DNA of 64,000 bases from Bacteroidales bacterium (GTDB lineage: Bacteria > Bacteroidota > Bacteroidia > Bacteroidales > WCHB1-69). The translations under genes were made by a program, and so were the position numbers. Where the stretch lies: NCBI GenBank assembly GCA_017395245.1, contig JAFPVR010000114.1, positions 645-64,644 of the forward strand, in the 5' to 3' direction. The notes under the pieces were generated by a model. That model did no database searches, had not been told where the DNA came from, and was given only the letters and a program-made list of their open reading frames with translations. Below, one piece after another: positions 34,508-56,117 of this stretch; within the stretch, counting starts at the first letter, position 1; each line of letters begins with the position of its first letter.

Positions 34508-37500
34508 TTACTTCACCCACACCTCATCCACGAACAACCAGGCCTGCTGGCCGGCACTCAGATGCCACTCGGGAAGCTTGCCGTAGTTTCGGATGACAAT
34601 CTTCACGTAGCGGGCATTGGCCTTGCCACGGACTTCAACGTCTTGGATATGTGCGCCTTCGGTGCGCGGGACGTTCACCTCCGTCTTGCCGAAGAGCTTG
34701 TAGTCCTTGCCATCGTCGGAGATGTAGACCTCCATGGCCGTCGGGTAGAAGATCCAGGCGCGCTGCTCCTCCAACACGCCCGCACCGACCTTGCTAACCG
34801 CTTTCTTCTCCCGCAGGTCGAGAATCACCTCGCAGTCGGTGGTGAAGCCCTGCCAGCCTCCGATGCGGTAGTTGACCTTGCCGCGCAGGTTGTCCACCAA
34901 CCCCGCGTCGCCGCCGGCATAGTACTGCGGATTGGGCATGGTGACGTATGTCAAATCCTTGTCGCGGGTGTAGCGCACGTAATGCGCCTCCGCCACCTGG
35001 CTGGTCTTACCCTTCACATCCACCGCCACCGCCTTGATGGTCATGTCTTTGTCAACCAAAATAGGCTCCTTATAGAGGATACCGGTCTTCGGTGAGGGTT
35101 CGCGTCCATCGGTGGTGTAGAATATGGCATAGCCTCCGTCGCCATCCACCGGCACGGCGTGTATCTGAGCTTTCAAATCGCGCTTCGCATCCGGCTTCAC
35201 CTCATCCTGCTTCTCCCTTTTTGGGGCGACGTTCTTATGGGTCATATCCATCACCTCCGGCATCATCAGTGCAATGCGGGTCTGGTCCTGGAAGGAGACC
35301 TTGTCGGTGGAGAAGACCGGCACCGGCACAATGGCCATCTTCGGGTCTATACGCGTCACGGGCATGTTGCCTGCGCCTCTGCCCCAGGCCTCGCCGGGTT
35401 TGTCACCCATCGTGAACACCAGTTCACCACCCTTGGAAATCTCCTCGTATGTGAGGTAGGAACGGGTCAGCGGTTTGCCGTTCAACGTCACCGTCTGGAT
35501 ATACGGTTTGTCGCCATTCTTGATGATAGTCAGAGGTTTGGATTTTTCCAATTGGAGATCTACGCGATCGAAGAGCGGATAGCCGATGATGTACTGGTTG
35601 CTGCCCGGACAGACGGGATAGAAGCCCACCGCGCTGAGCACGTACCACGCCGACATCTGGCCGCAGTCCTCGTTGCCGCACAATCCGTCGGGCTTGGAAG
35701 TGTAGAGTTCCGTGAGGATTTTCTTGACCATCTCCTGCGTTTTGTCGGGACGGCCCACGAAGTTGTAGAGGTAGGCGGCGTGATGGCTCGGTTCATTGCC
35801 GTGGGCATACTGCCCGATGACGCCGGTGATGTCGCTTTGCTGGCGACCGGCCATCTCGGAGGAGGAGTTGAAGAGGCGGTCGAGGAACATTTCCATCTTC
35901 TTAGGACCGCCCATCATGTCGATGTAGCTGTTGAAATCGTGCGGCACGTACGTGGTGTATTGCCAACAGTTGGCCTCGGTGTAGAAATTGTTGACCTCGC
36001 GCGGGTTGAACGGGGTCATAAAGCCGCCGTTCATCCTGCCGCGCATGAAACCGCTCGGATCCATAATGTTTTTATAGGACTGTGCACGACGGATGTATTC
36101 GTCATAAACCTTCTGATTTCCAATGGCTTTGGCATACATAGCAATACACCAGTCGTCGTAAGCATACTCCAATGTCTTCGACACGGACTCGTTCTCCATG
36201 TCACCCGGCACGAAGCCGTATTTGACGTACTCGGGACGACCAAGTTTGTTGAGGTTGGCCGTGGCAATCATCGCCTCCAACATCTCGTCGGCAGGGAAAT
36301 CGTTGATGCCCTTCTGGTAGGCATCGAAGACAACGGGGACGGCATGGTAACCAATCATACACCAGGTTTCAAACGCCGACAGCTCCCACATGGGCAGGTA
36401 ACCCGACTGGCGGTACTGGTTCATAAACGTGTAGAGGAAGTCCGCGCTGCGTTTGCGGTCGATGATGTTGAGCAGCGGATGCAGGGCGCGATAGGTGTCC
36501 CACAGGGAGAAAACGGTGTACATCTTCCTGTCCCCATCCACATGGTGGATTTTCTGATCTTCACCACGATAGCGGCCGTCAAGGTCGGAATAAAGATACG
36601 GCGAGGTAAAGCAATGATACAAAGCCGTATAGAAGGTCTTAAGATATTCGGTGTTTTTGGAAACAACTCTGATTTTGCCCAGTTCCTTGTTCCAAATCTC
36701 CGTCGCCTGCTTATGCACACGGTCGAAGTTGAAATCGGCAACCTCGGTCTGGTTGTTGACAGCCCCACTCATATCGACGGCGGAGATGGCCACCTTGACC
36801 ACCACCTGCGTGACTCTCTCGTCGAAATAGAGAACCGCCTTGCAATTGGTACCCTTTATCTCTTTGACGTTCACAGGTTTGTCATCTTGATAATAAACGA
36901 CTTCCGTGGGATTGACGGAGGTTTTGAGGGAGAAGGCGCAGTACTGGTCGTCATTCCAAGCTTCGGAACGGCGGAATCCCACCAAATCATTGGCTTTAAG
37001 GGTCATATAGCTCTCAAGCGTTTTATCGCGATGCTTCAAATCGACAATAATGCCGTGCTTGCCGTCCTTGGGGAAGGTGTAGCGGTGCACACCCACGTAG
37101 TTAGCAGCGGTCATCTCGGCATTGATACCGTTGTCGAATTTCACTGCGTAGTAACCGGGCTCAGCCTTCTCGTTGGCATGAGAGAAAGCGAGGGCGTACT
37201 TCTCGTTGATGACAGAGGGCTCGCCGACAAACGGGGTGACGAGAATGTCGCCGTAGTCCTCGCAGCCGGTACCATTGAGGTGGGTGTGCGAGAAGCCGTA
37301 GATGCGGTTGTCGCTGTAGTGGTAGGCGGAACAGCCGTCCCAGCCCTCCAAACGCGAGTCCGGACTAAGCTGGATGGCGCCAAACGGCAGGATGGCACCG
37401 GGATAGGTGTGTCCATGCTCGGCAGTACCCACGAACGGGTTGACATACTGCGACTGCGCATTGCCGACAAAAACGGCGATAATCAGCGCAAACAGAATCA

Positions 37501-37516
37501 AAGTTGTCTTTTTCAT
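34508..37516 (-). CDS. GH92-family glycoside hydrolase (alpha-mannosidase-like) with C-terminal CHB_HEX_C-like and discoidin (F5/8 type C)-like domains
   Basis: 1002 aa. Signal peptide, then the GH92 N-terminal hallmark YVNPFVGTAEHGHTYPGAILPFGAIQLSPDS. The C-terminal ~250 aa resemble carbohydrate-binding modules. Confidence 0.88.
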   Translation of the reverse strand: MKKTTLILFALIIAVFVGNAQSQYVNPFVGTAEHGHTYPGAILPFGAIQLSPDSRLEGWDGCSAYHYSDNRIYGFSHTHLNGTGCEDYGDILVTPFVGEPSVINEKYALAFSHANEKAEPGYYAVKFDNGINAEMTAANYVGVHRYTFPKDGKHGIIVDLKHRDKTLESYMTLKANDLVGFRRSEAWNDDQYCAFSLKTSVNPTEVVYYQDDKPVNVKEIKGTNCKAVLYFDERVTQVVVKVAISAVDMSGAVNNQTEVADFNFDRVHKQATEIWNKELGKIRVVSKNTEYLKTFYTALYHCFTSPYLYSDLDGRYRGEDQKIHHVDGDRKMYTVFSLWDTYRALHPLLNIIDRKRSADFLYTFMNQYRQSGYLPMWELSAFETWCMIGYHAVPVVFDAYQKGINDFPADEMLEAMIATANLNKLGRPEYVKYGFVPGDMENESVSKTLEYAYDDWCIAMYAKAIGNQKVYDEYIRRAQSYKNIMDPSGFMRGRMNGGFMTPFNPREVNNFYTEANCWQYTTYVPHDFNSYIDMMGGPKKMEMFLDRLFNSSSEMAGRQQSDITGVIGQYAHGNEPSHHAAYLYNFVGRPDKTQEMVKKILTELYTSKPDGLCGNEDCGQMSAWYVLSAVGFYPVCPGSNQYIIGYPLFDRVDLQLEKSKPLTIIKNGDKPYIQTVTLNGKPLTRSYLTYEEISKGGELVFTMGDKPGEAWGRGAGNMPVTRIDPKMAIVPVPVFSTDKVSFQDQTRIALMMPEVMDMTHKNVAPKREKQDEVKPDAKRDLKAQIHAVPVDGDGGYAIFYTTDGREPSPKTGILYKEPILVDKDMTIKAVAVDVKGKTSQVAEAHYVRYTRDKDLTYVTMPNPQYYAGGDAGLVDNLRGKVNYRIGGWQGFTTDCEVILDLREKKAVSKVGAGVLEEQRAWIFYPTAMEVYISDDGKDYKLFGKTEVNVPRTEGAHIQDVEVRGKANARYVKIVIRNYGKLPEWHLSAGQQAWLFVDEVWVK

Positions 37517-37582: not shown

Positions 37583-40500
37583 TTACAGCACCGTAATACT
37601 TCCCACCAACTTCTGCGGCCGTCCTGCCGTGTCCGTGTACTCAATCACATAGTTGTAAATCGTCTGATACTGGGTCTGGCCACGGTACTCGCCGTACCAA
37701 CGGAAATTCTTGTCCGTGCTGTAGAAGACCAGCTCGCCCCAACGGTTGTAGATGTAGACCTTGAAGAGGTTGATGTTGGAGGTGAAACCTTCCGGAATGT
37801 AGAAACAGTCGTTGAGGCCGTCCCCGCGTGAGGGGGTGATGGCATTGGGAAGCACAAGCTCGTAGTGGCAGCCTTCCACCCGGATATGCGCCGTCGCGCT
37901 GCAGCCACCCTCCGTGGCTGTCACCGAGTAAATGCCCGGCGATGTCACCACGATGGTCGTGGCTGTTTCGCCCGTGCTCCATACGTAGTCCGTCATCGGG
38001 CTCAAAACTGTCAGCGAGGCCTCGTTGTACTCGCAGAAGTCTTCCGTCAGCATCTCAATGCGCAAGGCCGTGTCAATGATTGTAAGCTGCAACGTCACCA
38101 CGCTGTCGCAACCATTGACCGTCTGCAGGTTCTGCACGCGTGTGAGCTCACCCGCCCCTATCGTCTCCTGCGGGCTGATGGCGAAGCCGTTCGCGTTGTA
38201 GCCCTCACCTTCGCAGACCGTGGCTTCGACAAGTTCAGCCACCACTGGGTTGACCGTCAAAAGCAGGACAACCATGCTGTCGCAGTGACCTGTGGCATGG
38301 TGTTGCTCGAAGGTGTAAACGCCCGCTTCCACAGTCTGATCCGCAGTAACATCAAAGTTGTATTCTGTATAAGTTTCACCTTGGCAGACACTTGCGGTAA
38401 CCGTATCGACAGAATTCGGCCATACATTGACCGTCACTACATTGCTATAGACCGTGCCGCAACTCTGACTCACCCATGCGCGACGCAACGAGAAAGCGTA
38501 GGCCGCGGTGTTCGGATAGGTGTAGCCCTGGGCATTGGCCGTACCGGGCGCAGGAGCCCAGTCCGTGCCGTTCGTGCTTATCTGCCACTGGTAGCCGCCA
38601 TTGTTGCCGCCCGAAGCCACCGTGCCCGTGAAGGGGGCAATGTCCTCGCCGTCGCACACCTCCTGCGAGGCGGCGATAGTGCCGGGTGTCAACTCGCCAT
38701 TCAGCGTATTGAGCGTCACCGTAGCGGTGGCTGTACAGCCAATGTGGTCTGTCACCGTGAAGGTGTACGTCCCCGCCGGACGGTTGCTGATGGAGGTTGT
38801 CATGGCGATATTCGTACCCGAGGCGTTCGTCCAAGCGTAGGTCATCGGGGTCTGCCCGCCTGTAACCGAAGCTGTGGCAGAACCCGTGGATTCGCCGTAG
38901 CAGGTGATGTGGGTGACATTACCGATGTTGGCAGAAATATTGTCCACAGAGAGGTGATACGTCACCACGCTGTCGGCCCCGTGCGAGGTGAGCAGCGTCA
39001 CCACGTGCGTGCCCGCCGCCGTGAAACTGTACCCGTGCCAGGTGTACGGCAGGTCGTCGGCGCAGACGGTGGTGTCGACGGTGGTCGTCACGTTCTGATA
39101 TACGGTCAGATGAATTGTCAGGACGCTGTCGCAGCCGAGTGTGTTTGTGAAATTTTGGGTGTAGGTGCCCGCTTCGATATACGAGATTTCGTTATATTGA
39201 AGGGGCAGGGCATTTTCGATGACAGCCGTGTCGATTGTGGCGTTCGTGACATGGTTCACGGTCAAATGCATCGTCACCACCGAGTCGCAGCCGAGAACAT
39301 TGGCATACGTATGCGGGTAATCGCCGGAAGTGGTGTACGTCACGCCACTCCATACAAAGCTTTCGCATACAGTGGTATCCAGCTCCGAATAGACGGAGGC
39401 CCGGAATGTGACGACAACCGAGGTATCCACCGAGCATCCGGATGTATCATAAATAGTGAAAGTATAGACAATAGTGGTGTCGTGGTCGAGATCCGCCGGC
39501 GGTTGGATGGTGAAGACCGAGTCGTTTACGGGTGTCACCCACGGACCTTGCGCTGTGGAGTAGTCAAAGACAAAGGTTGCTTCCGGCAACGCTTCGGTAC
39601 TCAAGGCCAATTCCCAACCGAAGATGTAGCCGTTGTCCACGCTCCAGCCGTCCATCACCTCGATAAACCAAGAGCCGTTCAGCGGACAACCTATCAGGTT
39701 GCTAAACGAATCGTCGGGATGGTAGAAGTGCGTGCCGGCCGCCACATTGGAGGAATCAACAATGCCATTATGCTCGTTTTCAGCACGGTAAATCAGGCTT
39801 CCCTCGCCCGGCGCATACGTGTAGCCCTGCGTAGTGTTGTTCGACCAGCAGTAATTCCATCCATTGCCCGGTTCGTTTCCAAAAGCAGTCGGGTCGCAAG
39901 TGCTCACGGAATAGTCGTATGCATCCCCTAAGAAGGTGCCCACATCCAGATTTGATCCGCTCTGCCAGCCGCGCGACGAAGGCGCTATCTGCGAGTTGCA
40001 ACTTGAACTACCCCAGCCTCCATATTTCAACAAATCCGCTTTTTGTCCATTGGGACAGGTGATATTAATATAAAGGTCGCCAATCCAGGAGTGCTCCATG
40101 TTGAGACGCACGTAGTAAATGTCGTCCACGCTCTCTATCGTGTCGCCGGGGGCGTAGGCCGAGAAGGTCAGCGGCGACTGGTAGGAACAACCGTATGGGT
40201 CACAGGAATATCCGTCGGGCAGGAAGATGGTGTCGGACAAAGTGAGCGTTGTCTCCCGGTTGCCCAAGAGGATATTGCTGCCCGGCTGGTAGCCCACCGT
40301 CACTGTATAAGCGCTGCCCGCGCAGAGCGAAGTGTCTATATCCACCGAAATGATCGGGTCATAAGTGGATGATACATAGTGTTCTGCGGTAACAGAGCAT
40401 CCGTAATTGTCTACTACCGTCACCGAGTAGAGACCTGCGGCGGTCACCGTAATGGACTGTGTCGTGTCGCCGGTATTCCACATATAGGAAGAGGCGTAGT

Positions 40501-43500
40501 CGGCGGTAAGGGCCACCGACGAATCCAAACACATCACAGAAGGACCTGCAATATGGTACGGAATGACGGGATAGGTGTTCAGCGTCATCACCACCGTGCT
40601 GTCCGCACCGGTAGCGGCGGCAAGGACCGCGTTCTGTGTGCCTGTCTCTGTAAAAGTGACCCCGTTCCAGGTGAACGGCAGCTCACTTTCGCAAACGGTG
40701 GAGTCAATCTCGGATGTCACGTTGGGGAAGACCGTCAGCGTGAGGGTGAGGATACTGTCGCAGCCAGAGACATTTGTTAAATACTGGATGTAAATGCCTT
40801 CTTCGATATACGAGATTTCGTTATATTGATAGGGCAATGCGTTTTCGACAATGGCCGTGTCGATAGTGCCGTAGGTGGTCGGAAGCATGGTCACCGTCAT
40901 GGTGATGGTGCTGTCCGCACCGGTATGGGCCAGGATGGTGGTCGTCTTCGTGCCCGCCACCGTGAACACGCTGTCGTTCCACGTGAACGGAAAGGCGGTT
41001 TCGCAGACGGCGGAATCGAGCTCGGAAGTGACGTTGGGGAAAACATTTAGGTTAACTGTCAGGATACTGTCACAGCCTGAAGCATTTGTTAAGTATTGGG
41101 TGTAGATGCCGGCTTCGACATACGTGCTGTCGTTATATTGATAAGGCAGGGCATTTTCGATGACGGCCAGTGTCACCGTGCCGTAGGTCGTCGAGGATTC
41201 CGTCACCGTCATCACCACTACGCTGTCCGCGCCCGTGGCGGCCTGCAGCAACACGCTGTCGGTGCCCGCCGCCGAAAACACCACGCCGTTCCAGGTAATC
41301 GGGAAACCGCCCTCGCAGACGATGGAATCCACCTCGACCATAACGTTAATCTGGAGGGTAAGAACACTGTCGCAACCCGCTGCATTCGTCAGGTATTGGG
41401 TGTAAATGCCAGCTTCGACATACGTGCTGTCGTTATATTGGATGGGCAGGGTGTTCACGTTGACGAGGGTGTCGAATGTGCCGTAGGTGGTCGGGAGCAT
41501 CGTCACCGTCATGGTGATGGCGCTGTCCGCACCGGTGTGGGCCAGAATCGTGGTAACTTTCGTACCGGCTTCCGTAAACACGCTGTCGTTCCATGTAAAC
41601 GGGAAGGCGGTTTCGCAGACGGCGGAATCAAGTTCCACTATAACGCCAAGATGGAGGGTGAGAATACTGTCGCAGCCGGCCGCATTCGTCAGCAATTGGG
41701 TATAGATACCTGCTTCGACATACGTGCTATCGTTATATTGATAGGGCAAGGCGTTTTCGATGACAGCCGTGTCGAAGGTGCCGTAGGTGGTCGGAGTCAC
41801 CGTCAGGGTCATCACCACGGTGCTGTCCGCGCCTTCTGCGGACAGAATGGTGGTGGTCTTCGTGCCCGCCGCCGTGAACACGCTGTCGTTCCAGGTGATG
41901 GGCAATTCGCCTTCGCAAACGACGGAGTCAACGAACGTGGTCACGTTCTCGTAAACATTGATAACGACGGTAAGGACGCTGTCGCAGCCGGCCGCGTTCG
42001 TCAGGTATTGGGTGTAGGTACCGGCTCCGGCACACGTACTGTCGTTATATTGATAGGGCAAGGCATTTTCGATGACGGCCAGCGTCACCGTGCCGTAGGT
42101 CGTCGGGGATTCCGTCACCGTCATCACCACCACGCTGTCCGCGCCCGTGGCGGCCTGCAGCAACACACTGTCGATGCCCGCCGCCGCAAACACCACGCCG
42201 TTCCAAGTGATCGGGAAACCGCCCTCGCAAACGACGGAGTCGAGATAGTTCGTCACGTTGGGGTAAACCGTCAGGGAGAGGGTGAGGATGCTGTCGCAAC
42301 CGGCGGCATTTGTGAGGTATTGGGTGTAAGTGCCGGCTTCGACATACGTGCTGTCGTTATATTGATAAGGCAAGGCGTTTTCGACAACAGCCGTGTCAAA
42401 GGTGCCGTAGGTGGTCGGAAGCACGGTGAGATTCATCGTGATGGTGCTGTCCGCGCCGGTGTGGGACAAGATCGTGGTCATTTTTGTTCCCGCTGCAGTG
42501 AAGATGCTGTCGTTCCAAGTGATGGGAAGCTCGCCCTCGCAGACGGTGGAGTCGATTTCAGAAGTCACATTCGGGAAAACCGCCAGGGTGAGGGTGAGGA
42601 TGCTGTCGCAGCCTAAAGAATTCGTCAAATATTGGGTGTAAGTACCAGCTTCGATATACGAGATGTCGTTATATTGATATGGTAGGGCATTTTCGATGAC
42701 GGCCGTATCGAAAGAGCCATAGGTAGTCGGAATCATCGTCACCGTCATGGTAATGGTGCTGTCCGCGCCCGTGTGGGCGAAGATGTTGGTCGTCTTCGTG
42801 CCTGCCGCCGTAAATACGCTGTCGTTCCAGGTAAACGGGAAGGCTGTTTCACAGACGGCGGAATCGAGCTCGGAAGTGACATTGGGGAAGACCGTCAGAG
42901 TGAGCGTGAGGATACTGTCGCAGCCGGCAGAATTCACCAGCATCTGGGTGTAGGTTCCGGCTTCGACATACGAGATTTCGTTATGTTGATAAGGCAGGGC
43001 ATTTTCGATGACCGCCGTGTCGAGGGTGCCGTAGGTGGTCGGAATGACGGTCAGCGTCATCGTGATGGTGCTGTCCGCGCCGGTATGGGCCGGAATGGTG
43101 GTCGTTATCGTTCCTGCTGCATTGAAGATGCTGTCGTTCCAGATGACTGGGAGCTCGCCTTCGCAGACGGTGGAGTCAATTTCAGCGGCAACATTCGGAA
43201 AAACCGTCAGGGTAATGGTGAGGAGGCTGTCGCAGCCGGCAGCATTTGTCAAGTACTGGGTGTAAGTGCCTGCTTCGACATACGTGCTGTCGTTATAGTG
43301 ATAGGGCAAGGCGTTTTCGACGATGGTCGTGTCGAAGGTGCCGTAGGTGGTCGGGACTACGGAAACATTCATCACCACCAGGCTGTCCGCACCGGTGGAA
43401 GCCGTCAAAATGGCCACCAGCGTGTCCGCCTGCGTGAACGTCACTCCGTTCCAGATGAACGGCAGCGCACCCTCGCAAATGGTGCTGTCCGCCGCATTGG

Positions 43501-46500
43501 TCACGTTGCTCAGCACATTCAACACAATGGTCAGCGTACTGTCGCAGCCCTCTGCATTGGTCAGCAATTGCGTGTAAGTGCCCTCCCCATAATAAATGCT
43601 GTCGTTGAGATGATACGGCAGGTTGTTTTCCAGAATGGTGATGGTCAGGGTGTCGGCAGTGGCCGCATGCACCGTCAAGGTCAGCGTCACCAAACTGTCG
43701 CAGCCATGCACGGTGGCGAACGGATACTGGATAACGGACCATGCGGGCGTTCCAACACCGAAAGTCGTATCAATCAAACCGTTGACATAGTGATACGGCA
43801 GGTCATTCTCGCAGAGGGTGAGACTGGTATCGGTGAAAGCGGAGTGGTTCACCGTCAAATGCAGCGTCACCACCGAGTCGCAACCGTTGGCCGCCGTGAG
43901 ATAGTAGCGACTGGTATCGTTGCTCTCGTAATAGGTCACACCGTCAATCCACGTCAGCGAGTCGCACACCTCAACCTCATAAACGGAACTGGCAACCGGC
44001 ATGCCCGCCAAAGTCAGATGCACCACACTGTCGCAACCGTCAACTGTCGGGAGGGTGATGAGGTGGGTGCCCGCATCTGCGAGGAGCGTATCGTGGTAAA
44101 GGTACGGGAAGTCATTGACGCAAACCCCGATGGTGTCCGCCACCTCGTAAACAGGCAGGAAAACGAGTCGCAGCACCGTGGTACTGTCGCAACCGCCCGC
44201 CGCCGTGTCGTGGCGGATAAACAGGTCGTTGCTGTCGGAAACGTTCGTCAGCTCAAAGCCGAAACGGTTATATTCGGTAATATTGGCGCACAGCGTGTCA
44301 TAAATCTGCACGTAGCTGTATTCCTGCGGGTAAAGGGTCCGGCACCAATTCAGCTCGCCGCAACCGCCAGTGGCCGTGACGCAGATGTCCATCGAATCGG
44401 CATAGACCCCGAACAGCAACGTAATACTATAGGGATCCTCTACCGGCAGCACAATGAGACTGTCGGGCACTGTCCACACCACATTCTGCAACCCTGAAAG
44501 GGAATCGATCGTGTAGGTGTATTCGCCACCCTGGCAAGGCCAGCCCTCGCCCTCGATGGCGGGCGGATTGTCCGTGTTGGGTGTGACAGAAAGCTGCAAA
44601 ATAACCAGACTGTCACAACCATAACTGTCATGCCCGGCCACTATCGTATCCTGATAAAGTCCAGTCTCTGTTGGGGTTATATCAAATCCATACGTTGTAT
44701 AATGATTATTGACACAGATGGTGTCTTCTATAATCCGATAGTTTTCACGCACCTCCAACTCCAAGACATAGGTGCTGTCACAATAACTCGACTCGGAGTT
44801 CGCACTGCGGGTGAAGGTATGGTGGCCCGCTGCGGGTGTCAGCACTTCGAAGCCATACCCCAAATAGTCTTGACCCTGACAAATGGAATCGTAATAGGTG
44901 ATGGTCGGACCCTCCACCACGCGGATGCGGGCATAAAGGTTCGAGCAGAAGACCGCGCCGTTGCTGGTGATGTAGAGCGTGGCAGCCACCGTGTAGGTGC
45001 CCGCCTCAGCATAGCTATGAACCGTCTGCATGCCGGTCACCGTCGGGGTGCTGTCGCCGAAATTCCAGACCACGCTGTCGCAAGGATAGTTGACTTCCAC
45101 ATTGAAGTTGATGGGCTCATACGGACAGAACTTGGTGCCCGGCGGCAGGTCGGTGTTGAGGATACCGTTCACGTAGAGCTGCTCTTTGAGCGGTACGGCC
45201 TTAGAACCAGCAGCATAGCCGTACGACTCGTGGAAGCCGAGGCCGTAGCAGTGGGCGATGAAGCCACCGTCGCAATGCAGCGTGTGCGTGCCGTTGGCGA
45301 TATGCCGGCGCACGAACGCGTAAGAGGTGTTGCCGACCACGGGTGCGAACTGCCCACCGATATTGACACCGTCGAGGGTCACGCCACTGGTTTCGGCAGC
45401 CGGCACCACAATGTTGACGTAGTGGTCGGTGATGCCCGGCGAGTTGAAGGTTGCAAAGGTGATGTCGTTGAGCATCTGCTCGGTAGGCGGAATCCAAACC
45501 ATCGACGGGTCACTGCGTTCCCGCGGATTGCCCTGCACGGCACCGGCAATGTAGAGATAGACACCGACAGGCTCGGAAGTCTCCAAATAGCAGGAGCCCT
45601 CGTTGCCGGGAAGCTGGAATTCATACGTCTGGCGCGACTGGATAGTGGCCAGCAGCGTGCCATTCTTACGGATTTCAGTGTTGTCACGCAGCGCAGTCAC
45701 CCGCACCACATCAAAATTCTGACTCTCCGTGGAGGTGATGGCAAAATTGCGGCCCCAATACTTGACGCCGATGGCCTGCTCCACCAAATGGTCGGAGTAG
45801 GAGTTGTCGATGGGCACCAGAGCGCAGACGTTGCCGTTGAAGACCGCCACCGGCTTGTTGTCATGCGACTGGATCAGCGTACCCGACAGGTCGCCGAGCG
45901 TGCCGCCATACTGCGACAACCCGAGGTAGGTCTGGCCCGCCTGCAACGTCACCGTGAAGGTCTGCTGCGCGGGATGGCCGCCCTGCAACGCCCGCGACGG
46001 CGTGATGTCCACCTCCGTGTTGTCCACCGTTGCCACAATGACGAACTCCGCATTCATCATCGGCATGTAGGTTTGCAGGACATATTCGTCGGACAAAGCC
46101 TCCACAGGCAGCACGTCGGTGACATCAAAGCTGCTGGTGTTGTAGTTGGCGGCATAGACCGACACCGAATCTGTGGTCTCCACCAAGAGGCCGAAATCGC
46201 CCGCCACATCCGCCACCTGCGGATAGGCCTGCGACACGGGGATTGTGACAGTGGTCACGGAATGGTCGGCGACGGCAAACGGCATACTCCAGCCGGTGCG
46301 CGGGTTGCTCACCGTACCGGTACAAGCGTCCTCAGCCGAAATGTTCAGCGTAATCGTGGGCGTGTGGAAGTGGTTACGCAGATACGACAGCCAGAAGGTC
46401 TTGCCCACCGATGCCGGCGAGCCCAACGAATCGGACAACATCGACGACGGAATCACATACACCGATGCCGTATCGACGCACTCGCCGCCGTTGCTGGCAA

Positions 46501-49500
46501 TGACCGTGTATTCCGTCGGCAAAAGCGGAGACACCTGCACCACATTTGTGTCCTCGTTGCTGTGCGACCAATAGTAATGCTGCGCCCCGGGCGTGGCCGT
46601 GAGCTGGATGTAGTAGCCTTGACAGTTGTCAGTGGGCACCTCCAAAGCGTAAACCGTGGTGTTCAGCGTCTCGAACGTCACCTCATAAGCACCCTGATCC
46701 ACGATATTGCCGCAGGCGATGCGCGGGTCATCCTTCAAATCTGTGGGCCATGAAACCCATTGGTTGTCACCCGCATCCACCGCCGGCGACTGTGCCGTCA
46801 GCGTGTAATCGTCGGCATCGTTCGTGAAAACGCCAGGCGTGTCGTCCAATAAATTGTGGTCGCCGATAATGTTGCCGCCCACGTTGAGCGCATGGCCGGG
46901 GTTGTAGATGACAATGTTGTTGTACATCCGCAGTTTCAGTGCGTTGGTGATGGAATCGTTACCGCCGGTACCCGTGGTGTCTGTGCCGGAACCGCCGCCA
47001 GAGCCACCGCCTCCGCCGGGATCACCGCCGGAGCCTCCACCGGAACCACCTTCGTTAGAACCTCCACCAAAATCGTCACCATTGACCGCATAAAGTTCAA
47101 CCGTATCGTGCGAGCGCAACTCGTATGCACCGATGTCGATGACCTCTGCGAAGATACGGTCTTTCGTGACCATATCCTTCGACCAGCTTGCGCAATCGTT
47201 ATTTCCCTGATTGACCGCCGGGGAATTCGGTCGCGGCCGATAGTCAAAACGCCGGTCAACAAACAACGTGTCATGGACACCTACAATATTATAGGCAGGA
47301 ACCTCATCAAGGTTAATGTCCTGCGAGTACTTGTTGTTGACAATTATATTGTTACACAAGACCAGAGCATCCGTATCCAACGTCAAAACCGTTGTAAGTT
47401 TCTGCGTGTCAATATATTGTTCAAAAGCACCTATATCCACAATTTCCTCATAGATACGAATATTGTCCTCCATATCACTTCCCCACCCCACACAGGCGTT
47501 GCTGCCGGCATTCACCGCAATACTCGTCGGACGCAAACGGTAGTTATAATCGTTATCCACAAACAGCGTATCATTGTCCAACACAATATTGTTTTCAGGT
47601 ATATCACTAATATTCAGATTGTTGGAATACTTGTTATTGATAATAATATTGTTGCAGAGCGTCCAATCCGTACCAGTTTCATCCCCAAGGAAGGCGATGG
47701 CCGTATCATACTCGACCCGAGGCTCGAACGCGCCGATGTCGATAACGTTCTCATAGACACGGGTTTTCTCGCACAGGTCGGAAGCTAACGTGCAACAGAT
47801 GTTGTCACCCGCATTGACAGCCGCAGAACTCGACCTCGGCGTGTAGTCGTAGATGCTGTGAACGAACAAATCCTCGCCTGCGGAGAGAATATTGTGCCCC
47901 GCATCCACCTGGGCGTTCGTGCTGACCGCATTCGGATTGTTGACGATAATGTTGTTGCAGAGCGTCAGCGTGTGGTTCTCTTTTTGCAACACGGCGACCA
48001 CGGAATCCTCCTCCGCGGTGGATTGTTCAAACGCACCGAAATCAATGGTATCCTGATAGATACGATTAACATCAGCCATATCCAAGCCCAATAGACAGCA
48101 GTCGTTGTTGCCCACGTTGATGACAATGGAGTTCTCTCGCGGCGTGTAGTCCAGCACATTGTCGCGGAACACGTCGTGATGATCCACCAACAAGTTGAAA
48201 GCGGAAACCTCGTCATCGCTCACGGGGTTGGTACCGCTGTTGTTGATAATAATGTTGTTGCAGAGGTTCAGCTGATGGCCTTCCCGCCCGTACACCACAA
48301 AAATATCGGAATCGGAGAAGTGGGTAATCTCATACGCGCCGATGTCAATGATGTCCATGTAAATACGAGCGCCATCCTTGAGGTCGGTCGCCAACGGACA
48401 GCAATCGTTGTTGCCCTGGTTGACCGCCGCACTGGTCGGACGAGGCATATAGTTCAACTCGTTGTCCCTGAACACCTGATTATTGTCAATCAACAGATTG
48501 TTGCCCGGCGTGTTCATGTCGTTCACGCTAAAGGAACGCATATTGTTGATAATGATATTGTTGCAAACCGTCATCTGATGGTTTTCCTCCTGGAACACCG
48601 CCACATACTGCGGCTCCGGCCAGAACTCAAAGGCGCCGATGTCAATGGTATCTTGAATAATACGATCACGCTTGGCAATATCCTCCGGCAGGTCGTTGCA
48701 GCCGTTGCGGCCCCGGTTCACGGCAGGAGAGACCTCAATCAGCCGGAAATCATGATTCGCGTCGCGGAAAATCGCCACGGTATCCTGAATCAAATTGCAA
48801 TACGCCGTGTCGAAGCCGAACCAGGTGTTCGTGTTGGCAGCAAAACGATTGTTGACGATGATATTGTTGCAAAGGTACAAGGAGGCGGATGTCCGTTCGC
48901 AAACGATGCCGTTGTAGTCGGGATCCATGTAGCCACCACCGTCGCCTCCCCAGCTGCCACCGCCGCCGCCGCCACCGCCACCTCCGGCATAGTTGGTGTC
49001 GTAATAAACGGGGTTTTCGAACGCACCGATGTCGATACGGCCACCGCTGATACGGGTTACCGTGTCAATATCGGTGGACAGACCGTTACAGCCGTTGTCG
49101 CCGGCATCCACTGCGTCGGAGTGCATAGTCAGACGGAAGTCCAAAAGTTCGTCGCGGAACACCTCCACGAGGTCGTTGACGATGTTGCTTTCCGGCACCG
49201 GCGAGAAGTTGACGTTGGGCGCATGCGGCGAGTTCAGAATGATGACGTTATTGCAGAGATTCAGCGTGGTGCCGGAATCCTGATACACCACCGCCCGCTG
49301 GTTGTCAATGTAAATCTCGAACGCGCCGAGATCAATCACTTCATGCAGTACACGTGTCGTGTCCACCAGATCAAACGCCCACGTACAGCAGGGATTCGAA
49401 CCGGCATCCACGGCAATAGAGCCATCCAACAACTTGTAGTTCTGATACTTGTCAACAAAGACATAGTCATTGTCCACCGTTAAATTGTGCGGACCCGCCG

Positions 49501-51130
49501 CCACGTTCACATTGCTGTCGACGGAATGGTTATTGCTCAGGATATTGTTACAGAAGGTCAGGTTGCCATTCTCCTCTTGGTAGATGCCAAACTGCCGCGG
49601 CCAGAAACGCCGCTCAAACGCACCGATATCGATTAACTCATTTTCCACACGAGGCGCTCCCGCAAGATCAAGTGTTTCGGACATGCAGGTGTTGCTTCCC
49701 GCGTCAATGGCCACGCTGCTGTCGGCCAGCATGAAAAGTGTAAGGTCGCCGACAAAAACGCCGGAACCGTTCTGCACCAGGTTATTGTCATTCACCGTCA
49801 CATTGACATTTGAGTCGGCGTAGTTGTTGATTATGATGTTGTTACAGAAGTGCAAGACAGCCGTACCTTCCTTCAGCACAGGGTAGTTGACGACCGGCGG
49901 ACGGTACTCATACGCGCCAATATCAATAGTGCCGTTCAACACACGATCCTCGCCGTTCAGGTCGCTGGCGATTCCCGACGCGCAGGTATTCTGCCCCGCA
50001 TCAATAATCGGGCTCTGTGCCTTCGGCCGGAAGTTGATGTATAGATTCAAGAAGACTTCCGCACTGTCTGTCAGGAAGTTGTTAGCCTCCACCGCTACGT
50101 TGATATTCGTGTCGGCGTGATTGTTCATGATAATATTGTTGCAGAAATGGAGGTCTCCTGTACCTTCCTTAAACACAGGGTAATAGGCACGGTCGTAGCG
50201 GATTTCGAAAGCACCGAGATCCACCGTATAGTTCATCACACGCCCTTCGCCGGTAAGATCCGTAGCGATGGTGGAAGCGCAATTGTTATTGCCCGCATCC
50301 ACCGTCACACTATGCGACTGCACACAGAAATTGGCGTATGGGTGGAGAAACACCTGCTCGCTGTTGGCCACAAAATTGTAAGCTGTCACCGCAACATTGA
50401 CATTGCTGTCCGCATGGTTGTTGATGATGATGTTGTTACAGAAGGTCAAGTTCCCATTCGTCTCCTGAAAGACAGGGAATTGATCCTCCACATAGCGGGT
50501 TTCGAAAGCACCGATATCTACCGTGTCGTGCTGCACGCGCACATTGCCGGAAAGGTCAGTGGGTATAATGCCGGCACAGCTATTGCTTCCGACGTTCACC
50601 ACAGGCGCATCCGACTTCGGGTGGAAGTTCAGATGGTCGTTAAGAAACACGCCGGAGCCGTCGGCAAGGTAGTTATTCGACAAAAGCGTCGCATTGACAT
50701 TGTCCCCACTGAAGTTGTTGATAATAATGTTATTGCAGAACGTCAGCGTGCCTTCAACATCCTGAAAAACCGCATAGTTGACGAAATAAGGATACTCGAA
50801 AGCGCCGAGATCAACGGTGTCGTTATACTTGCGAAGGATGCCGTTCAAATCGTACAGCCATGTGGCGTAAGTGTTGCTGCCAAGGTTGTAGACCAGCGAC
50901 GGCATCACGATGTGGAAGTCGGTATGGCTGTTGGCGAAGAGGGGATACTGGCCGAAGAGGTTGTAGGTGGCGTTGACGTTGGAGGGACTGTCCCCGTTGT
51001 TGACGACCACGTTGTTGCGCACCGACAGCGAGCCACCGTCCTCCATCAGGAGGGCGTAACCCGACTGCGCCCTTCCTGTGAGGAAGGCCGCGACGGTAAG
51101 CAGACACAACAACAGGGCACGTCTCATCAT
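37583..51130 (-). CDS. giant (4,515 aa) T9SS type-B (gliding-motility C-terminal domain) surface protein
   Basis: Domain order from the N-terminus: signal peptide MMRRALLLCLLTVAAFLTGRAQS; 14 tandem ~95-aa beta-helix-type modules each ending D(I/L/F/Q)GA(F/Y)E; two Gly-rich linkers; an IgGFc-binding-N-terminal-like region (FWLSYLRNH..); a PKD-like module (WNFGDS..); about 10 tandem 104-aa Cys-bracketed repeats; a proprotein-convertase P-domain-like module (MEHSWIGDLYINITCPNG); a SprB-type repeat (ITCYGESTGSATASVTGG); and a C-terminal sorting domain (LVLPNAITPSRGDGLNDCFYI...). Confidence 0.85.
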   Translation of the reverse strand: MMRRALLLCLLTVAAFLTGRAQSGYALLMEDGGSLSVRNNVVVNNGDSPSNVNATYNLFGQYPLFANSHTDFHIVMPSLVYNLGSNTYATWLYDLNGILRKYNDTVDLGAFEYPYFVNYAVFQDVEGTLTFCNNIIINNFSGDNVNATLLSNNYLADGSGVFLNDHLNFHPKSDAPVVNVGSNSCAGIIPTDLSGNVRVQHDTVDIGAFETRYVEDQFPVFQETNGNLTFCNNIIINNHADSNVNVAVTAYNFVANSEQVFLHPYANFCVQSHSVTVDAGNNNCASTIATDLTGEGRVMNYTVDLGAFEIRYDRAYYPVFKEGTGDLHFCNNIIMNNHADTNINVAVEANNFLTDSAEVFLNLYINFRPKAQSPIIDAGQNTCASGIASDLNGEDRVLNGTIDIGAYEYRPPVVNYPVLKEGTAVLHFCNNIIINNYADSNVNVTVNDNNLVQNGSGVFVGDLTLFMLADSSVAIDAGSNTCMSETLDLAGAPRVENELIDIGAFERRFWPRQFGIYQEENGNLTFCNNILSNNHSVDSNVNVAAGPHNLTVDNDYVFVDKYQNYKLLDGSIAVDAGSNPCCTWAFDLVDTTRVLHEVIDLGAFEIYIDNQRAVVYQDSGTTLNLCNNVIILNSPHAPNVNFSPVPESNIVNDLVEVFRDELLDFRLTMHSDAVDAGDNGCNGLSTDIDTVTRISGGRIDIGAFENPVYYDTNYAGGGGGGGGGGSWGGDGGGYMDPDYNGIVCERTSASLYLCNNIIVNNRFAANTNTWFGFDTAYCNLIQDTVAIFRDANHDFRLIEVSPAVNRGRNGCNDLPEDIAKRDRIIQDTIDIGAFEFWPEPQYVAVFQEENHQMTVCNNIIINNMRSFSVNDMNTPGNNLLIDNNQVFRDNELNYMPRPTSAAVNQGNNDCCPLATDLKDGARIYMDIIDIGAYEITHFSDSDIFVVYGREGHQLNLCNNIIINNSGTNPVSDDEVSAFNLLVDHHDVFRDNVLDYTPRENSIVINVGNNDCCLLGLDMADVNRIYQDTIDFGAFEQSTAEEDSVVAVLQKENHTLTLCNNIIVNNPNAVSTNAQVDAGHNILSAGEDLFVHSIYDYTPRSSSAAVNAGDNICCTLASDLCEKTRVYENVIDIGAFEPRVEYDTAIAFLGDETGTDWTLCNNIIINNKYSNNLNISDIPENNIVLDNDTLFVDNDYNYRLRPTSIAVNAGSNACVGWGSDMEDNIRIYEEIVDIGAFEQYIDTQKLTTVLTLDTDALVLCNNIIVNNKYSQDINLDEVPAYNIVGVHDTLFVDRRFDYRPRPNSPAVNQGNNDCASWSKDMVTKDRIFAEVIDIGAYELRSHDTVELYAVNGDDFGGGSNEGGSGGGSGGDPGGGGGSGGGSGTDTTGTGGNDSITNALKLRMYNNIVIYNPGHALNVGGNIIGDHNLLDDTPGVFTNDADDYTLTAQSPAVDAGDNQWVSWPTDLKDDPRIACGNIVDQGAYEVTFETLNTTVYALEVPTDNCQGYYIQLTATPGAQHYYWSHSNEDTNVVQVSPLLPTEYTVIASNGGECVDTASVYVIPSSMLSDSLGSPASVGKTFWLSYLRNHFHTPTITLNISAEDACTGTVSNPRTGWSMPFAVADHSVTTVTIPVSQAYPQVADVAGDFGLLVETTDSVSVYAANYNTSSFDVTDVLPVEALSDEYVLQTYMPMMNAEFVIVATVDNTEVDITPSRALQGGHPAQQTFTVTLQAGQTYLGLSQYGGTLGDLSGTLIQSHDNKPVAVFNGNVCALVPIDNSYSDHLVEQAIGVKYWGRNFAITSTESQNFDVVRVTALRDNTEIRKNGTLLATIQSRQTYEFQLPGNEGSCYLETSEPVGVYLYIAGAVQGNPRERSDPSMVWIPPTEQMLNDITFATFNSPGITDHYVNIVVPAAETSGVTLDGVNIGGQFAPVVGNTSYAFVRRHIANGTHTLHCDGGFIAHCYGLGFHESYGYAAGSKAVPLKEQLYVNGILNTDLPPGTKFCPYEPINFNVEVNYPCDSVVWNFGDSTPTVTGMQTVHSYAEAGTYTVAATLYITSNGAVFCSNLYARIRVVEGPTITYYDSICQGQDYLGYGFEVLTPAAGHHTFTRSANSESSYCDSTYVLELEVRENYRIIEDTICVNNHYTTYGFDITPTETGLYQDTIVAGHDSYGCDSLVILQLSVTPNTDNPPAIEGEGWPCQGGEYTYTIDSLSGLQNVVWTVPDSLIVLPVEDPYSITLLFGVYADSMDICVTATGGCGELNWCRTLYPQEYSYVQIYDTLCANITEYNRFGFELTNVSDSNDLFIRHDTAAGGCDSTTVLRLVFLPVYEVADTIGVCVNDFPYLYHDTLLADAGTHLITLPTVDGCDSVVHLTLAGMPVASSVYEVEVCDSLTWIDGVTYYESNDTSRYYLTAANGCDSVVTLHLTVNHSAFTDTSLTLCENDLPYHYVNGLIDTTFGVGTPAWSVIQYPFATVHGCDSLVTLTLTVHAATADTLTITILENNLPYHLNDSIYYGEGTYTQLLTNAEGCDSTLTIVLNVLSNVTNAADSTICEGALPFIWNGVTFTQADTLVAILTASTGADSLVVMNVSVVPTTYGTFDTTIVENALPYHYNDSTYVEAGTYTQYLTNAAGCDSLLTITLTVFPNVAAEIDSTVCEGELPVIWNDSIFNAAGTITTTIPAHTGADSTITMTLTVIPTTYGTLDTAVIENALPYQHNEISYVEAGTYTQMLVNSAGCDSILTLTLTVFPNVTSELDSAVCETAFPFTWNDSVFTAAGTKTTNIFAHTGADSTITMTVTMIPTTYGSFDTAVIENALPYQYNDISYIEAGTYTQYLTNSLGCDSILTLTLAVFPNVTSEIDSTVCEGELPITWNDSIFTAAGTKMTTILSHTGADSTITMNLTVLPTTYGTFDTAVVENALPYQYNDSTYVEAGTYTQYLTNAAGCDSILTLSLTVYPNVTNYLDSVVCEGGFPITWNGVVFAAAGIDSVLLQAATGADSVVVMTVTESPTTYGTVTLAVIENALPYQYNDSTCAGAGTYTQYLTNAAGCDSVLTVVINVYENVTTFVDSVVCEGELPITWNDSVFTAAGTKTTTILSAEGADSTVVMTLTVTPTTYGTFDTAVIENALPYQYNDSTYVEAGIYTQLLTNAAGCDSILTLHLGVIVELDSAVCETAFPFTWNDSVFTEAGTKVTTILAHTGADSAITMTVTMLPTTYGTFDTLVNVNTLPIQYNDSTYVEAGIYTQYLTNAAGCDSVLTLQINVMVEVDSIVCEGGFPITWNGVVFSAAGTDSVLLQAATGADSVVVMTVTESSTTYGTVTLAVIENALPYQYNDSTYVEAGIYTQYLTNASGCDSILTVNLNVFPNVTSELDSAVCETAFPFTWNDSVFTVAGTKTTTILAHTGADSTITMTVTMLPTTYGTIDTAIVENALPYQYNEISYIEEGIYIQYLTNVSGCDSILTLTLTVFPNVTSEIDSTVCESELPFTWNGVTFTETGTQNAVLAAATGADSTVVMTLNTYPVIPYHIAGPSVMCLDSSVALTADYASSYMWNTGDTTQSITVTAAGLYSVTVVDNYGCSVTAEHYVSSTYDPIISVDIDTSLCAGSAYTVTVGYQPGSNILLGNRETTLTLSDTIFLPDGYSCDPYGCSYQSPLTFSAYAPGDTIESVDDIYYVRLNMEHSWIGDLYINITCPNGQKADLLKYGGWGSSSCNSQIAPSSRGWQSGSNLDVGTFLGDAYDYSVSTCDPTAFGNEPGNGWNYCWSNNTTQGYTYAPGEGSLIYRAENEHNGIVDSSNVAAGTHFYHPDDSFSNLIGCPLNGSWFIEVMDGWSVDNGYIFGWELALSTEALPEATFVFDYSTAQGPWVTPVNDSVFTIQPPADLDHDTTIVYTFTIYDTSGCSVDTSVVVTFRASVYSELDTTVCESFVWSGVTYTTSGDYPHTYANVLGCDSVVTMHLTVNHVTNATIDTAVIENALPLQYNEISYIEAGTYTQNFTNTLGCDSVLTIHLTVYQNVTTTVDTTVCADDLPYTWHGYSFTAAGTHVVTLLTSHGADSVVTYHLSVDNISANIGNVTHITCYGESTGSATASVTGGQTPMTYAWTNASGTNIAMTTSISNRPAGTYTFTVTDHIGCTATATVTLNTLNGELTPGTIAASQEVCDGEDIAPFTGTVASGGNNGGYQWQISTNGTDWAPAPGTANAQGYTYPNTAAYAFSLRRAWVSQSCGTVYSNVVTVNVWPNSVDTVTASVCQGETYTEYNFDVTADQTVEAGVYTFEQHHATGHCDSMVVLLLTVNPVVAELVEATVCEGEGYNANGFAISPQETIGAGELTRVQNLQTVNGCDSVVTLQLTIIDTALRIEMLTEDFCEYNEASLTVLSPMTDYVWSTGETATTIVVTSPGIYSVTATEGGCSATAHIRVEGCHYELVLPNAITPSRGDGLNDCFYIPEGFTSNINLFKVYIYNRWGELVFYSTDKNFRWYGEYRGQTQYQTIYNYVIEYTDTAGRPQKLVGSITVL
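40575..43650 (-). repeat. about 10 tandem copies of a ~312-bp (104-aa) coding repeat inside the giant ORF
   Basis: Recurring peptide ..TTYGTFDTAVIENALPYQYNDSTYVEAGTYTQYLTNAAGCDSILTLTLTVFPNVTSE(I/L)DS(T/A)VCE..P(I/F)TWNDS(I/V)FTAAGTK.TTIL.HTGADSTITMT(L/V)T... The antisense ORF track shows the same peptide recurring about every 300 nt. Confidence 0.85.
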
Positions 51131-52489: not shown

Positions 52490-52521
52490 ATTCTTGGTAT
52501 TACTTGTTATCGACTTTGCTT

Positions 52522-52596
52522 CTCCACACTGCGCTCCGCTTGTGTGGAGTTAATTGCGCTTTGCGCGTTTTGCCTCTCCGAGGCTGCTTAAGGAAG
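52522..52596 (-). repeat. structured 5'-leader repeat L6
   Basis: Stem CTCCACAC/GTGTGGAG shows a compensatory change. 33 nt before ATG 52489 and only 15 nt after the preceding stop at 52612. Confidence 0.8.
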
Positions 52597-52611
52597 CTTT
52601 TATTCTGCATT

Positions 52612-54309: not shown

Positions 54310-54353
54310 CTCTGTATATGTTCGTTCATCTCATCATCGTTTCATTATCCTCT

Positions 54354-54535
54354 TTCACCCAGGGCTCACTTCGTTCACCCTCACCTCTCCTTCACCCAGG
54401 GTGCTCACTTCGTTCACCCTCACCTCTCCTTCACCCAGGGCTCACTTCGTTCACCCTCACCTCTCCTTCACCCAGGGCTCACTTCGTTCACCCTCACCTC
54501 TCCTTCACCCAGGGCTCACTTCGTTCACCCTGGGC
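54354..54535 (-). repeat. 37-39-bp tandem repeat, 4 full + 1 partial units, in the leader of FISUMP 52612..54309
   Basis: Unit is ttcacccagggctcacttcgttcaccctcacctctcc (unit 2 has +tg). In gene sense each unit can fold as (C/G)AGGG-TGAACGAAGTGAG-CCCTG. The promoter-proximal partial unit (first in gene sense, 54504-54535) has a 7-bp stem, CCCAGGG/CCCTGGG. Confidence 0.9.
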
Positions 54536-54546
54536 TGACATACGAC

Positions 54547-54569
54547 GCCCTTACAGGGCTTTCAAGGAA
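54547..54569 (-). repeat. divergent leader-repeat 5' module (TTCCTTGAAAGCCCTGTAAGGGC)
   Basis: Shares the TTCCTTGA boundary and a GCCC-TGTAA-GGGC hairpin. Here the 37-bp tandem array takes the place of the usual hairpins. Confidence 0.45.
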
Positions 54570-54587
54570 TTATGTTTCAATATATTA

Positions 54588-54596: not shown

Positions 54597-54607
54597 TAAC
54601 GTTTACT

Positions 54608-56115: not shown

Positions 56116-56117
56116 AT

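Follow-up and report, generated by a model that had tools for sequence, protein, structure and literature searches.

[quoted passage not shown] It was further reported that PorP-like proteins keep type-B cargo anchored (PMC9143113). SprB of F. johnsoniae is huge and repeat-rich, and carries a signal peptide, a type-B CTD and the SprB repeat. Fibrillar adhesin-like proteins, which are long and multidomain, combine a stalk of tandem repeats with a distal region free of repeats and with a recognised anchor, and in the work of Monzon, Lafita and Bateman CHU_C is a listed anchor of those from Bacteroidetes, 134 of which contain it (PMC8286594).

We have found that the window, by which we mean the whole 64-kb stretch of DNA that was analysed, holds a giant gene whose product shares all of the features just named for SprB and for fibrillar adhesin-like proteins (Table 1). 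It differs from SprB in its head, made of 14 choice-of-anchor Q modules and IgGFc_binding, and in its stalk unit, and, it seems, from the fibrillar adhesin-like proteins in that no known "adhesive domain" was detected in it. A preliminary description of this DNA had reported one uninterrupted ORF of 13.5 kb, and indeed 4,515 codons follow from the ATG, covering 21.2% of the window. In kind the protein is ordinary, some of its details being unusual, and it is already present in NCBI under the name [quoted passage not shown], which is generic for the CHU_C domain. Its host is an uncultured "Bacteroidales bacterium" of the gut, known from metagenomes only. We consider it likely that the giant is a fibrillar adhesin-like protein of the cell surface and a cargo of the T9SS.

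Table 1. Features of the giant gene and its neighbours, with residues of the giant protein and positions in the window
Feature	Residues	Position	Strand	Remark
GH92 gene		34508..37516		follows the giant gene
Giant gene (4,515 aa)		37583..51130	-	ATG start; stop codon 37583-37585; NCBI MBQ3734956.1
Sec signal peptide	1-21	51068..51130	-	MMRRALLLCLLTVAAFLTGRA, cleaved before Q; cleavage site by inspection
Head part 1, 14 tandem modules of ~99 aa	23-1483	46682..51064	-	NCBIfam choice-of-anchor Q
Gly-rich insert in module 8	715-733	48932..48988	-	long module 8 kept in orthologs
Gly/Ser-rich insert in module 14	1355-1392	46955..47068	-	
Head part 2, IgGFc_binding PF17517	1673-1963	45242..46114	-	Pfam E 3e-63, full profile length
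PKD_4	2000-2051	44978..45133	-	Pfam
Stalk, 26 of 31 G[CA]DS units	2078-3521	40568..44899	-	
PKD_6 (Bacteroidota PKD-like)	2187-2259	44354..44572	-	absent from the preliminary description
Regular array, ten 104-aa A/B double units	2490-3521	40568-43663	-	within main stalk
P-domain-like module, large internal insertion	3590-3850	39581..40363	-	P_proprotein
Three further G[CA]DS units	3909-4064	38939..39406	-	
Single SprB repeat PF13573	4071-4104	38819..38920	-	Pfam, 31-37 bits
Final two G[CA]DS-type units	4244-4353	38072..38401	-	
T9SS type-B CTD (CHU_C PF13585 / TIGR04131)	4427-4515	37586..37852	-	
Four tandem FISUMP-domain genes, signal-peptide-bearing		51134-52489, 52612-54264, 54643-56133, 56162-58408	-	
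Second T9SS type-B giant, 3' part		58548..64000	-	cut by the window edge; another contig gives at least 3,948 aa

At the C-terminus, where a type-B sorting domain had been proposed, CHU_C was matched at aa 4427-4505 of 4515 with 52.9 bits for the whole protein and 58 for the segment (cut-off 27), and TIGR04131 (type B) with 34.7 bits, marginally under its curated cut-off of 35. The CTD is also the most constrained part of the giant (dN/dS 0.04). No T9SS core machinery gene was found in the window, no ORF of at least 200 aa within it matched PorP/SprF (PF11751), and no PorP/SprF gene was found within 10 kb of the ortholog, so that it is from the CTD that we infer both secretion and surface tethering. 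A type-B cargo with no shuttle gene nearby is not anomalous, because orphan substrates are documented; the F. johnsoniae orphans are likewise type-B cargo without a porP/sprF-like gene directly downstream (PMC12618676). Besides the giant, the window encodes another type-B protein as well as a type-A-like domain. The two paralogous giants have nearly identical CTDs and, by analogy with the F. johnsoniae orphan substrates, could share one shuttle.

The signal peptide proposed for the other end looks by inspection like a Sec signal: its n-region is basic, its core hydrophobic and its residue at -1 small, with QS following the cleavage site. A cleavage pattern between A and Q is shared by the neighbouring secreted proteins. 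Each of the 14 modules that follow ends in a D-x-G-A-[FY]-E motif (n=14, aa 107-1478, period of about 100 aa); the modules are 30-57% alike among themselves, and NCBIfam choice_anch_Q was matched in 13 stretches with an E of 2.8e-102. Judged by motif and profile, these are choice-of-anchor Q domains. Their number and endings had been given correctly in the preliminary description; the beta-helix fold that it assigned to them was not borne out, a rung-like CNNIIxNN motif being all that backs it. Pfam beta-helix profiles gave no hit on the 14 modules, the best being B_solenoid_ydck with an E of 0.03 in one of them, and hhalign found nothing (probability <1%) between the Q profile and the beta-helix N-domains of the neighbouring FISUMP proteins. 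An AlphaFold model of four Q modules had a mean pLDDT of 28.7, obtained from overlapping windows self-aligned by MAFFT and hence from an alignment that was effectively very shallow. Searches of PDB by sequence and profile returned nothing meaningful for the entire giant, its stalk unit or its Q module. A homolog search with the Q array gave few matches, but it returns only proteins below about 700 aa, and the low count is poor evidence for rarity.

The second part of the head, an IgGFc-binding region first placed at about aa 1573-1977, was located more closely by Pfam, and the PKD-like module first placed at about aa 2017-2060 corresponds to PKD_4. Although PF17517, the N-terminal domain of animal FCGBP, is matched over its full profile, it is named after its founding animal protein; the giant is bacterial, and there is no sign that it binds immunoglobulin. 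A literature search on PF17517 and choice-of-anchor Q found nothing relevant.

Most of the remaining protein is built from 31 copies of a 52-aa "G[CA]DS" unit, which are 65-87% alike within the array; at the DNA level the array shows an identity of about 72%. The Cys-bracketed repeats of the preliminary description thus exist as an array, except that the Cys pairs straddle the unit junctions and do not bracket each unit. The unit matched no Pfam or NCBIfam model, and a literature search for its motif found nothing relevant, yet about 13,700 protein clusters contain relatives of it, many being 2,000-6,300 aa long, and all three of those scanned with Pfam (P0163, P0164 and P0165) end in CHU_C. 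As the unit has no Pfam model, domain-based screens could miss such proteins. An AlphaFold model of a 208-aa double unit was all-beta, with a mean pLDDT of 40.2 that makes it unusable.

The P-domain without a protease that had been noted at about aa 3627-3842 was matched by P_proprotein (34.4 bits, cut-off 21) in two stretches of the module; there is no peptidase domain anywhere in the protein, and Pfam found no peptidase S8, the subtilisin-like catalytic domain of proprotein convertase, in the whole giant. The cassette is optional, being present in two of the four complete orthologs as well as in the upstream paralog. Stand-alone Bacteroidales proteins of about 614 aa with P_proprotein and CHU_C are 50-59% identical to this module and also have a type-B CTD, but they are short and single-module, whereas in the giant the module is a stalk insert.

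Both neighbours named in the preliminary description are in place: a FISUMP gene lies exactly 3 nt before the ATG of the giant, and a GH92 gene, which carries an F5/8 type C domain, follows it. The context was found to be wider, with four FISUMP genes upstream rather than one, and a paralogous giant beyond them. In 11 of 11 related loci, L042 and ten recovered by a single-sequence scan of metagenomes, the four genes are conserved immediately upstream of the giant and on its strand. A dN of 0.15-0.22 is common to them and the giant, compared with 0.014-0.05 for the flanking genes. The four FISUMP genes are probably co-transcribed with the giant and functionally linked to it. A P-domain and G[CA]DS units recur in the paralogous giant, and no Q modules were found in the 3,287 aa of it that were seen. 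Over their last 1.66 kb the two giants share 86% DNA identity; recent gene conversion between the paralogous C-termini was considered and is unsupported, orthologous sequences being about 87-90% identical as against 83-86% for paralogous ones.

The presence of GH92 directly downstream and of conserved FISUMP genes upstream might suggest that the giant serves to capture or degrade polysaccharides, as a scaffold or as an enzyme, its head or P-domain binding or cleaving glycans of plants or of the host in concert with the GH92 and FISUMP proteins. P-domains belong to a family of jelly-roll binding domains, and the giant would then resemble the multimodular glycoside hydrolases, cellulases among them, that rumen Bacteroidetes export by way of the T9SS (PMC5831590). 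We nevertheless regard this role as unlikely, since neither Pfam nor NCBIfam found a catalytic or CBM domain in the giant, and the P-domain is dispensable in half of the complete orthologs. Furthermore, GH92 has a dN of 0.045, like the housekeeping flank and unlike the cassette, and in the related locus L047 it lies instead upstream of the FISUMP genes.

Since it is of giant size and repeat-rich like SprB, and ends in a type-B CTD, the protein could also be a mobile gliding-motility adhesin of the SprB type, which the gliding machinery would move over the cell, and its NCBI name, generic as it is, mentions gliding motility. The SprB-type repeat listed in the preliminary description was recovered, but as one copy only, of 31-37 bits (Table 1). 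In addition, there is no operon of the sprC-sprD-sprB-sprF type and no adjacent sprC-, sprD- or sprF-like gene, the neighbours being the FISUMP genes and GH92. The uncultured host is known only from metagenomes, and gut Bacteroidales are generally not known to be gliders. A gliding adhesin is thus quite improbable.

The giant gene is real, intact, conserved and under purifying selection, with a dN/dS of 0.16 overall (dS about 1.2) and of 0.10 in the Q array. The preliminary description had cautioned that repeats might be collapsed or expanded in the assembly; exact repeats inside the gene reach 42 nt at most, and six independent metagenome assemblies, all short-read and made by different pipelines, reproduce its 13,548 nt with 0-1 differences. 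Complete orthologs of 4,399-4,639 aa were found in three related genomes. An assembly artefact, pseudogene or chance ORF, as repeat-rich sequence seen in short-read assemblies only and the frameshifts of a more distant relative might lead one to suspect, is scarcely credible in view of these agreeing assemblies, the four intact orthologs and the low dN/dS, and 4,515 codons without a stop cannot come about by chance. That relative (L007) is the best match among GTDB representative genomes, which contain no close ortholog; it is 31% identical. The idea of an intraspecies hypervariable hotspot, prompted by a ThrS identity of 98-100% between strains with giants 10-30% apart, was rejected: compared with the relative M1, the flanking DNA is itself only 91-93% identical and the cassette 87-89%, and ThrS is under very strong constraint (dN/dS 0.03).

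Across orthologs the head is fixed and the stalk variable. All four complete orthologs have 14 Q modules, kept in order and length and pairing one to one with 66-73% identity, while the number of G[CA]DS units is 31, 33, 35 and 37. This contrast between an unchanging 14-module head and a changing stalk singles out the head as the likely functional end.

On the reading of the giant as a fibrillar adhesin-like T9SS cargo, the N-terminal signal peptide would carry it through Sec, the T9SS translocon would recognise its type-B CTD, and a PorP/SprF-type shuttle in the outer membrane, with its gene at another place in the genome, would take the protein and keep its C-terminal tether. The small beta-rich 52-aa units, about 31 in number, may together with the PKD, Ig-like and SprB modules build a long stalk that would hold the fixed head away from the cell. 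The head, comprising the 14 choice-of-anchor Q modules, an Ig-like module and IgGFc_binding, would be the probable ligand-binding end, and the P-domain module might serve as an optional extra binding cassette. Pfam and NCBIfam found no domain with known ligand specificity in the giant, so adhesion is argued from architecture. The adhesin or glycan-binding fibre of the preliminary description is the most reasonable interpretation of an N-terminal head, a repeat stalk and a C-terminal CHU_C anchor.

A bolder idea is that the five genes, for four secreted lectin-like FISUMP proteins and the giant, form a multi-component surface organelle, in which the invariant 14-module Q array would be a scaffoldin-like platform where the FISUMP proteins, or else a defined polymeric ligand, would dock, and the stalk would consist of a widespread, undescribed 52-aa domain with copies stapled by inter-unit disulfides. 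We hold this to be a long shot. If true, both the pairing of FISUMP proteins with a T9SS giant and the disulfide-stapled stalk domain would be new.

The giant leaves the understanding of T9SS cargo unchanged. Giant T9SS cargo are probably major determinants of adhesion in uncultured gut and rumen Bacteroidales, and almost none have been characterised. Since the 52-aa repeat is missed by current Pfam and NCBIfam models, domain-based surveys of adhesins may under-count the Bacteroidota proteins built on it. Finally, the strict link between FISUMP genes and the giant offers a testable partner for the large FISUMP family of unknown function.

The preliminary description had a single uninterrupted reading frame filling 21% of the window, and this was borne out by the ORF listing, in which the giant (the gene for the T9SS type-B surface protein) is one ATG-initiated ORF. 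Its exact protein has been recorded on at least 10 metagenome contigs and is held by NCBI as MBQ3734956.1, [quoted passage not shown]. Six of these contigs, obtained from different samples and with different assemblers, all assemblies being short-read, had 0-1 nt differences from the window gene over 13,548 nt. Since exact repeats within the gene reach no more than 42 nt, exact matches to its upstream paralog no more than 99 nt, and the DNA identity between copies of the tandem array is just ~72%, repeat collapse or expansion is disfavoured. When the giant was compared with P0163, a complete ortholog of 4,549 aa at locus L042 (69% identity in global alignment), the Nei-Gojobori dN/dS was 0.16 for the whole gene, 0.10 for the N-terminal array and 0.04 for the C-terminal domain, at a dS of ~1.2. 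An assembly artefact or pseudogene is excluded by the agreement of the six assemblies and the overall dN/dS, and, judged from these comparisons, the giant is functional, with purifying selection acting over its full length. Four long ORFs (506-707 aa) were also seen on the opposite strand; probable shadow ORFs of a gene with biased composition, they are not called as genes in the metagenome contigs.

Nearly every item in the domain list first proposed was recovered by Pfam and NCBIfam, close to where it had been placed; PKD_6 is an addition to that list. The N-terminus, MMRRALLLCLLTVAAFLTGRA with the cut before QS, fits the claimed signal peptide and by inspection resembles a signal peptidase I signal, and the same A/Q cleavage pattern is found in secreted proteins encoded next to the giant. 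The suggestion of a P-domain without a protease held, as P_proprotein was matched and no protease domain was found anywhere in the giant. This module is the core of a Bacteroidales family combining P_proprotein and CHU_C, of ~614 aa and 50-59% identical to the giant's. The type-B sorting domain was likewise recognized, with CHU_C above its cut-off at the C-terminus and the type-B model TIGR04131 scoring 34.7 bits against a cut-off of 35. Nothing in the results supports immunoglobulin binding by the IgGFc_binding domain.

Features of the window and of the giant (aa, residues of the 4,515-aa protein; other positions are those of the window)
Feature	Position	Strand	Remarks
Giant	37583-51130	-	4,515 aa
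Choice-of-anchor Q (NCBIfam NF041518)	aa 23-1483		13 stretches over 14 modules, E 2.8e-102
IgGFc_binding	aa 1673-1963		E 3e-63, full profile
PKD_4	aa 2000-2051		Pfam
PKD_6	aa 2187-2259		
Alternating stalk units	aa 2490-3521 (40568-43663)		ten 104-aa double units
P_proprotein	inside aa 3590-3850		two pieces, 34.4 bits, cut-off 21
SprB repeat	aa 4071-4104		one copy
CHU_C	aa 4427-4505		53-58 bits, cut-off 27
Antisense ORFs	37865-39931, 41096-42616, 42773-44497, 44630-46753	+	opposite the giant
Four tandem FISUMP (Fib_succ_major) genes	51134-58408	-	each with signal peptide
Second T9SS type-B giant	58548 to beyond 64000; also L038:1-9861	-	upstream of FISUMP genes
Fifth FISUMP gene	29796-31247	-	Por_Secre_tail, aa 92-164
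Efflux cluster	4672-16831	-	
ORF with odd domain pairing	20029-21030	+	

The 14 N-terminal choice-of-anchor Q modules, each of which ends in D-x-G-A-F/Y-E, had been labelled beta-helix-type, and this label was not substantiated. Pfam gave no beta-helix match and the PDB no match, and profile comparison showed no similarity to the beta-helix regions of the FISUMP proteins encoded nearby; an AlphaFold model of the modules reached a pLDDT of 28.7, and a CNNIIxNN motif is their sole feature resembling a beta-helix rung. Metagenomes were scanned with four of the Q modules, and with the loci already identified this brought the related loci to 11; their Q arrays are 39-99% identical to the giant's. 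All four complete orthologs (4,515, 4,549, 4,639 and 4,399 aa) carry 14 Q modules, with 31, 35, 33 and 37 stalk units, respectively, and only two of them have the P-domain module. Every Q module has its own one-to-one ortholog at 66-73% identity, and the modules keep their lengths, the Gly-rich inserts of modules 8 and 14 included. Within the protein, Q modules are only 30-57% alike and stalk units 65-87%. Thus, the giant is built of three parts that behave differently, namely an old head that stays fixed, a stalk in which units and cassettes are still gained and lost, and a highly constrained C-terminal anchor. The frozen head was seen only in this orthologous group; its rarity is not established by the sparse search results, because the homolog search seems blind to long proteins, all matches to two giant-derived queries being shorter than ~700 aa and the giant's own 90% cluster being represented by a 1,128-aa fragment.

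The Cys-bracketed repeat arrays of the preliminary description are real and consist of 31 copies of a 52-aa stalk unit (consensus ..D..VCE..LP...N......AGT.T..L....GCDS..T..LTV.P), although the cysteine pairs do not bracket single units. Over one stretch the units alternate strictly between subtype A, with the first Cys only and GADS, and subtype B, in which the first Cys is lost and GCDS kept. The unit has no matching Pfam or NCBIfam model and no match among PDB sequences, and the AlphaFold model of a double unit was all-beta at low confidence (pLDDT 40.2). A phmmer search of 1.84 billion cluster representatives with one 208-aa double unit retrieved 13,690 proteins at E<=1e-3, of which 2,383 reached E<=1e-30; lengths of 2,000-6,300 aa are frequent among them, and all three that were scanned end in CHU_C. 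Among 3,814 units from 150 such proteins, the GCDS Cys of one unit and the first Cys of the next, 23 residues apart, were kept or lost jointly (phi 0.52; 0.85 inside the giant alone), whereas the two Cys of one unit showed no such association (phi -0.10); units of one protein are not independent, which inflates p-values; the effect has a clear direction. The paired cysteines therefore lie across the unit junction, which suggests either disulfide staples between consecutive units or a true domain boundary that is shifted. Gut and rumen-type habitats are anaerobic and reducing, and inter-unit disulfides would be curious in a protein from such metagenomes.

Along the minus strand run, in this order, the second giant, four FISUMP genes, the giant, GH92 and thrS, confirming both the 3-nt gap reported between the last FISUMP stop codon and the giant and the position of GH92 next after it. 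Two of the four FISUMP proteins have weak Beta_helix matches. In 11 of 11 related loci the giant has FISUMP genes immediately upstream, in its own orientation. Divergence measured per gene between the window and L042 fell into two classes: the FISUMP genes (dN 0.145-0.22, dS 1.05-1.49) and the giant (dN 0.19, dS 1.2) on one side, and thrS (dN 0.014, dS 0.53), GH92 (dN 0.045, dS 0.63) and Fe-ADH with aldehyde dehydrogenase (dN ~0.05, dS ~0.84) on the other. By this measure the four FISUMP genes and the giant behave as one fast-evolving unit, with GH92 outside it. A strain-level hypervariable locus had been considered since ThrS is 98-100% identical among the relatives, and was dropped, as flanking DNA shows the relatives themselves to be 7-9% diverged. 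In other organisms, diversity-generating retroelements are reported to target FISUMP-family domains (PMC11661182); no reverse transcriptase was found among window ORFs scanned with Pfam. In the fifth FISUMP protein the T9SS type-A sorting domain match is N-terminal, before the FISUMP domain and not C-terminal, and the strain variant L002 has separate small Por_Secre_tail genes and an HTH gene in this region instead.

The second giant, which reaches at least 3,948 aa on a different contig, is a paralog whose last 560 aa are ~90% identical to the giant's (86% in DNA over 1.66 kb). It also has a P-domain and stalk units, of the canonical two-Cys form; no Q modules were found in the 3,287 aa visible, and the gene is missing from the more distant L042. 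A region starting NLVANGDFEQG resembles a carbohydrate-binding jelly-roll, with no Pfam match. Elsewhere in the window, three MacB-type FtsX permeases, an ABC ATPase, an HlyD-family adaptor and an outer-membrane efflux protein make up a tripartite efflux system in which the permease gene is triplicated, and an ORF matching both a 23S rRNA-intervening-sequence protein and a topoisomerase-type zinc ribbon, an odd pairing, may be mis-called.

Proteins with a type-B sorting domain pass the inner membrane through Sec, and the T9SS then recognizes them by that domain. From domain content we infer that the giant would take the same route. PorP/SprF-type shuttles extract type-B proteins from the SprA/Sov translocon (PMC12618676), and type-B proteins remain surface-bound to PorP-like proteins (PMC9143113); the giant would likewise be extracted and stay bound on the surface. 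A PorP/SprF-like gene was found neither in the 64-kb window, scanned for ORFs of 200 aa or more, nor in the surroundings of the ortholog out to 10 kb, and two unrelated giants with the stalk repeat had neither an adjacent shuttle nor FISUMP neighbours. The shuttle gene is usually downstream, and orphan substrates share one encoded elsewhere (PMC12618676); as their sorting domains are nearly identical, the two paralogous giants would be expected to share one shuttle. The C-terminus would then be cell-proximal and the conserved head of Q modules and IgGFc_binding distal. CHU_C is a listed anchor of the fibrillar adhesin class (PMC8286594), and the giant's predicted layout is that of such an adhesin. 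An SprB-like gliding adhesin is possible, if weakly supported, as the giant holds an SprB repeat, but in one copy only, with no spr operon beside it and a generic NCBI name. A glycan-capture or enzymatic role together with GH92 is not supported, since the giant has no catalytic or CBM match and GH92 shows no co-evolution with the cassette.

The giant, a putative fibrillar adhesin, is already deposited under a generic annotation, and type-B cargo proteins of giant size are known as a kind. Less ordinary are the frozen 14-module choice-of-anchor Q head, the strict FISUMP linkage, and a widespread stalk repeat, unmodelled in curated libraries, with cysteine pairs that span its junctions.
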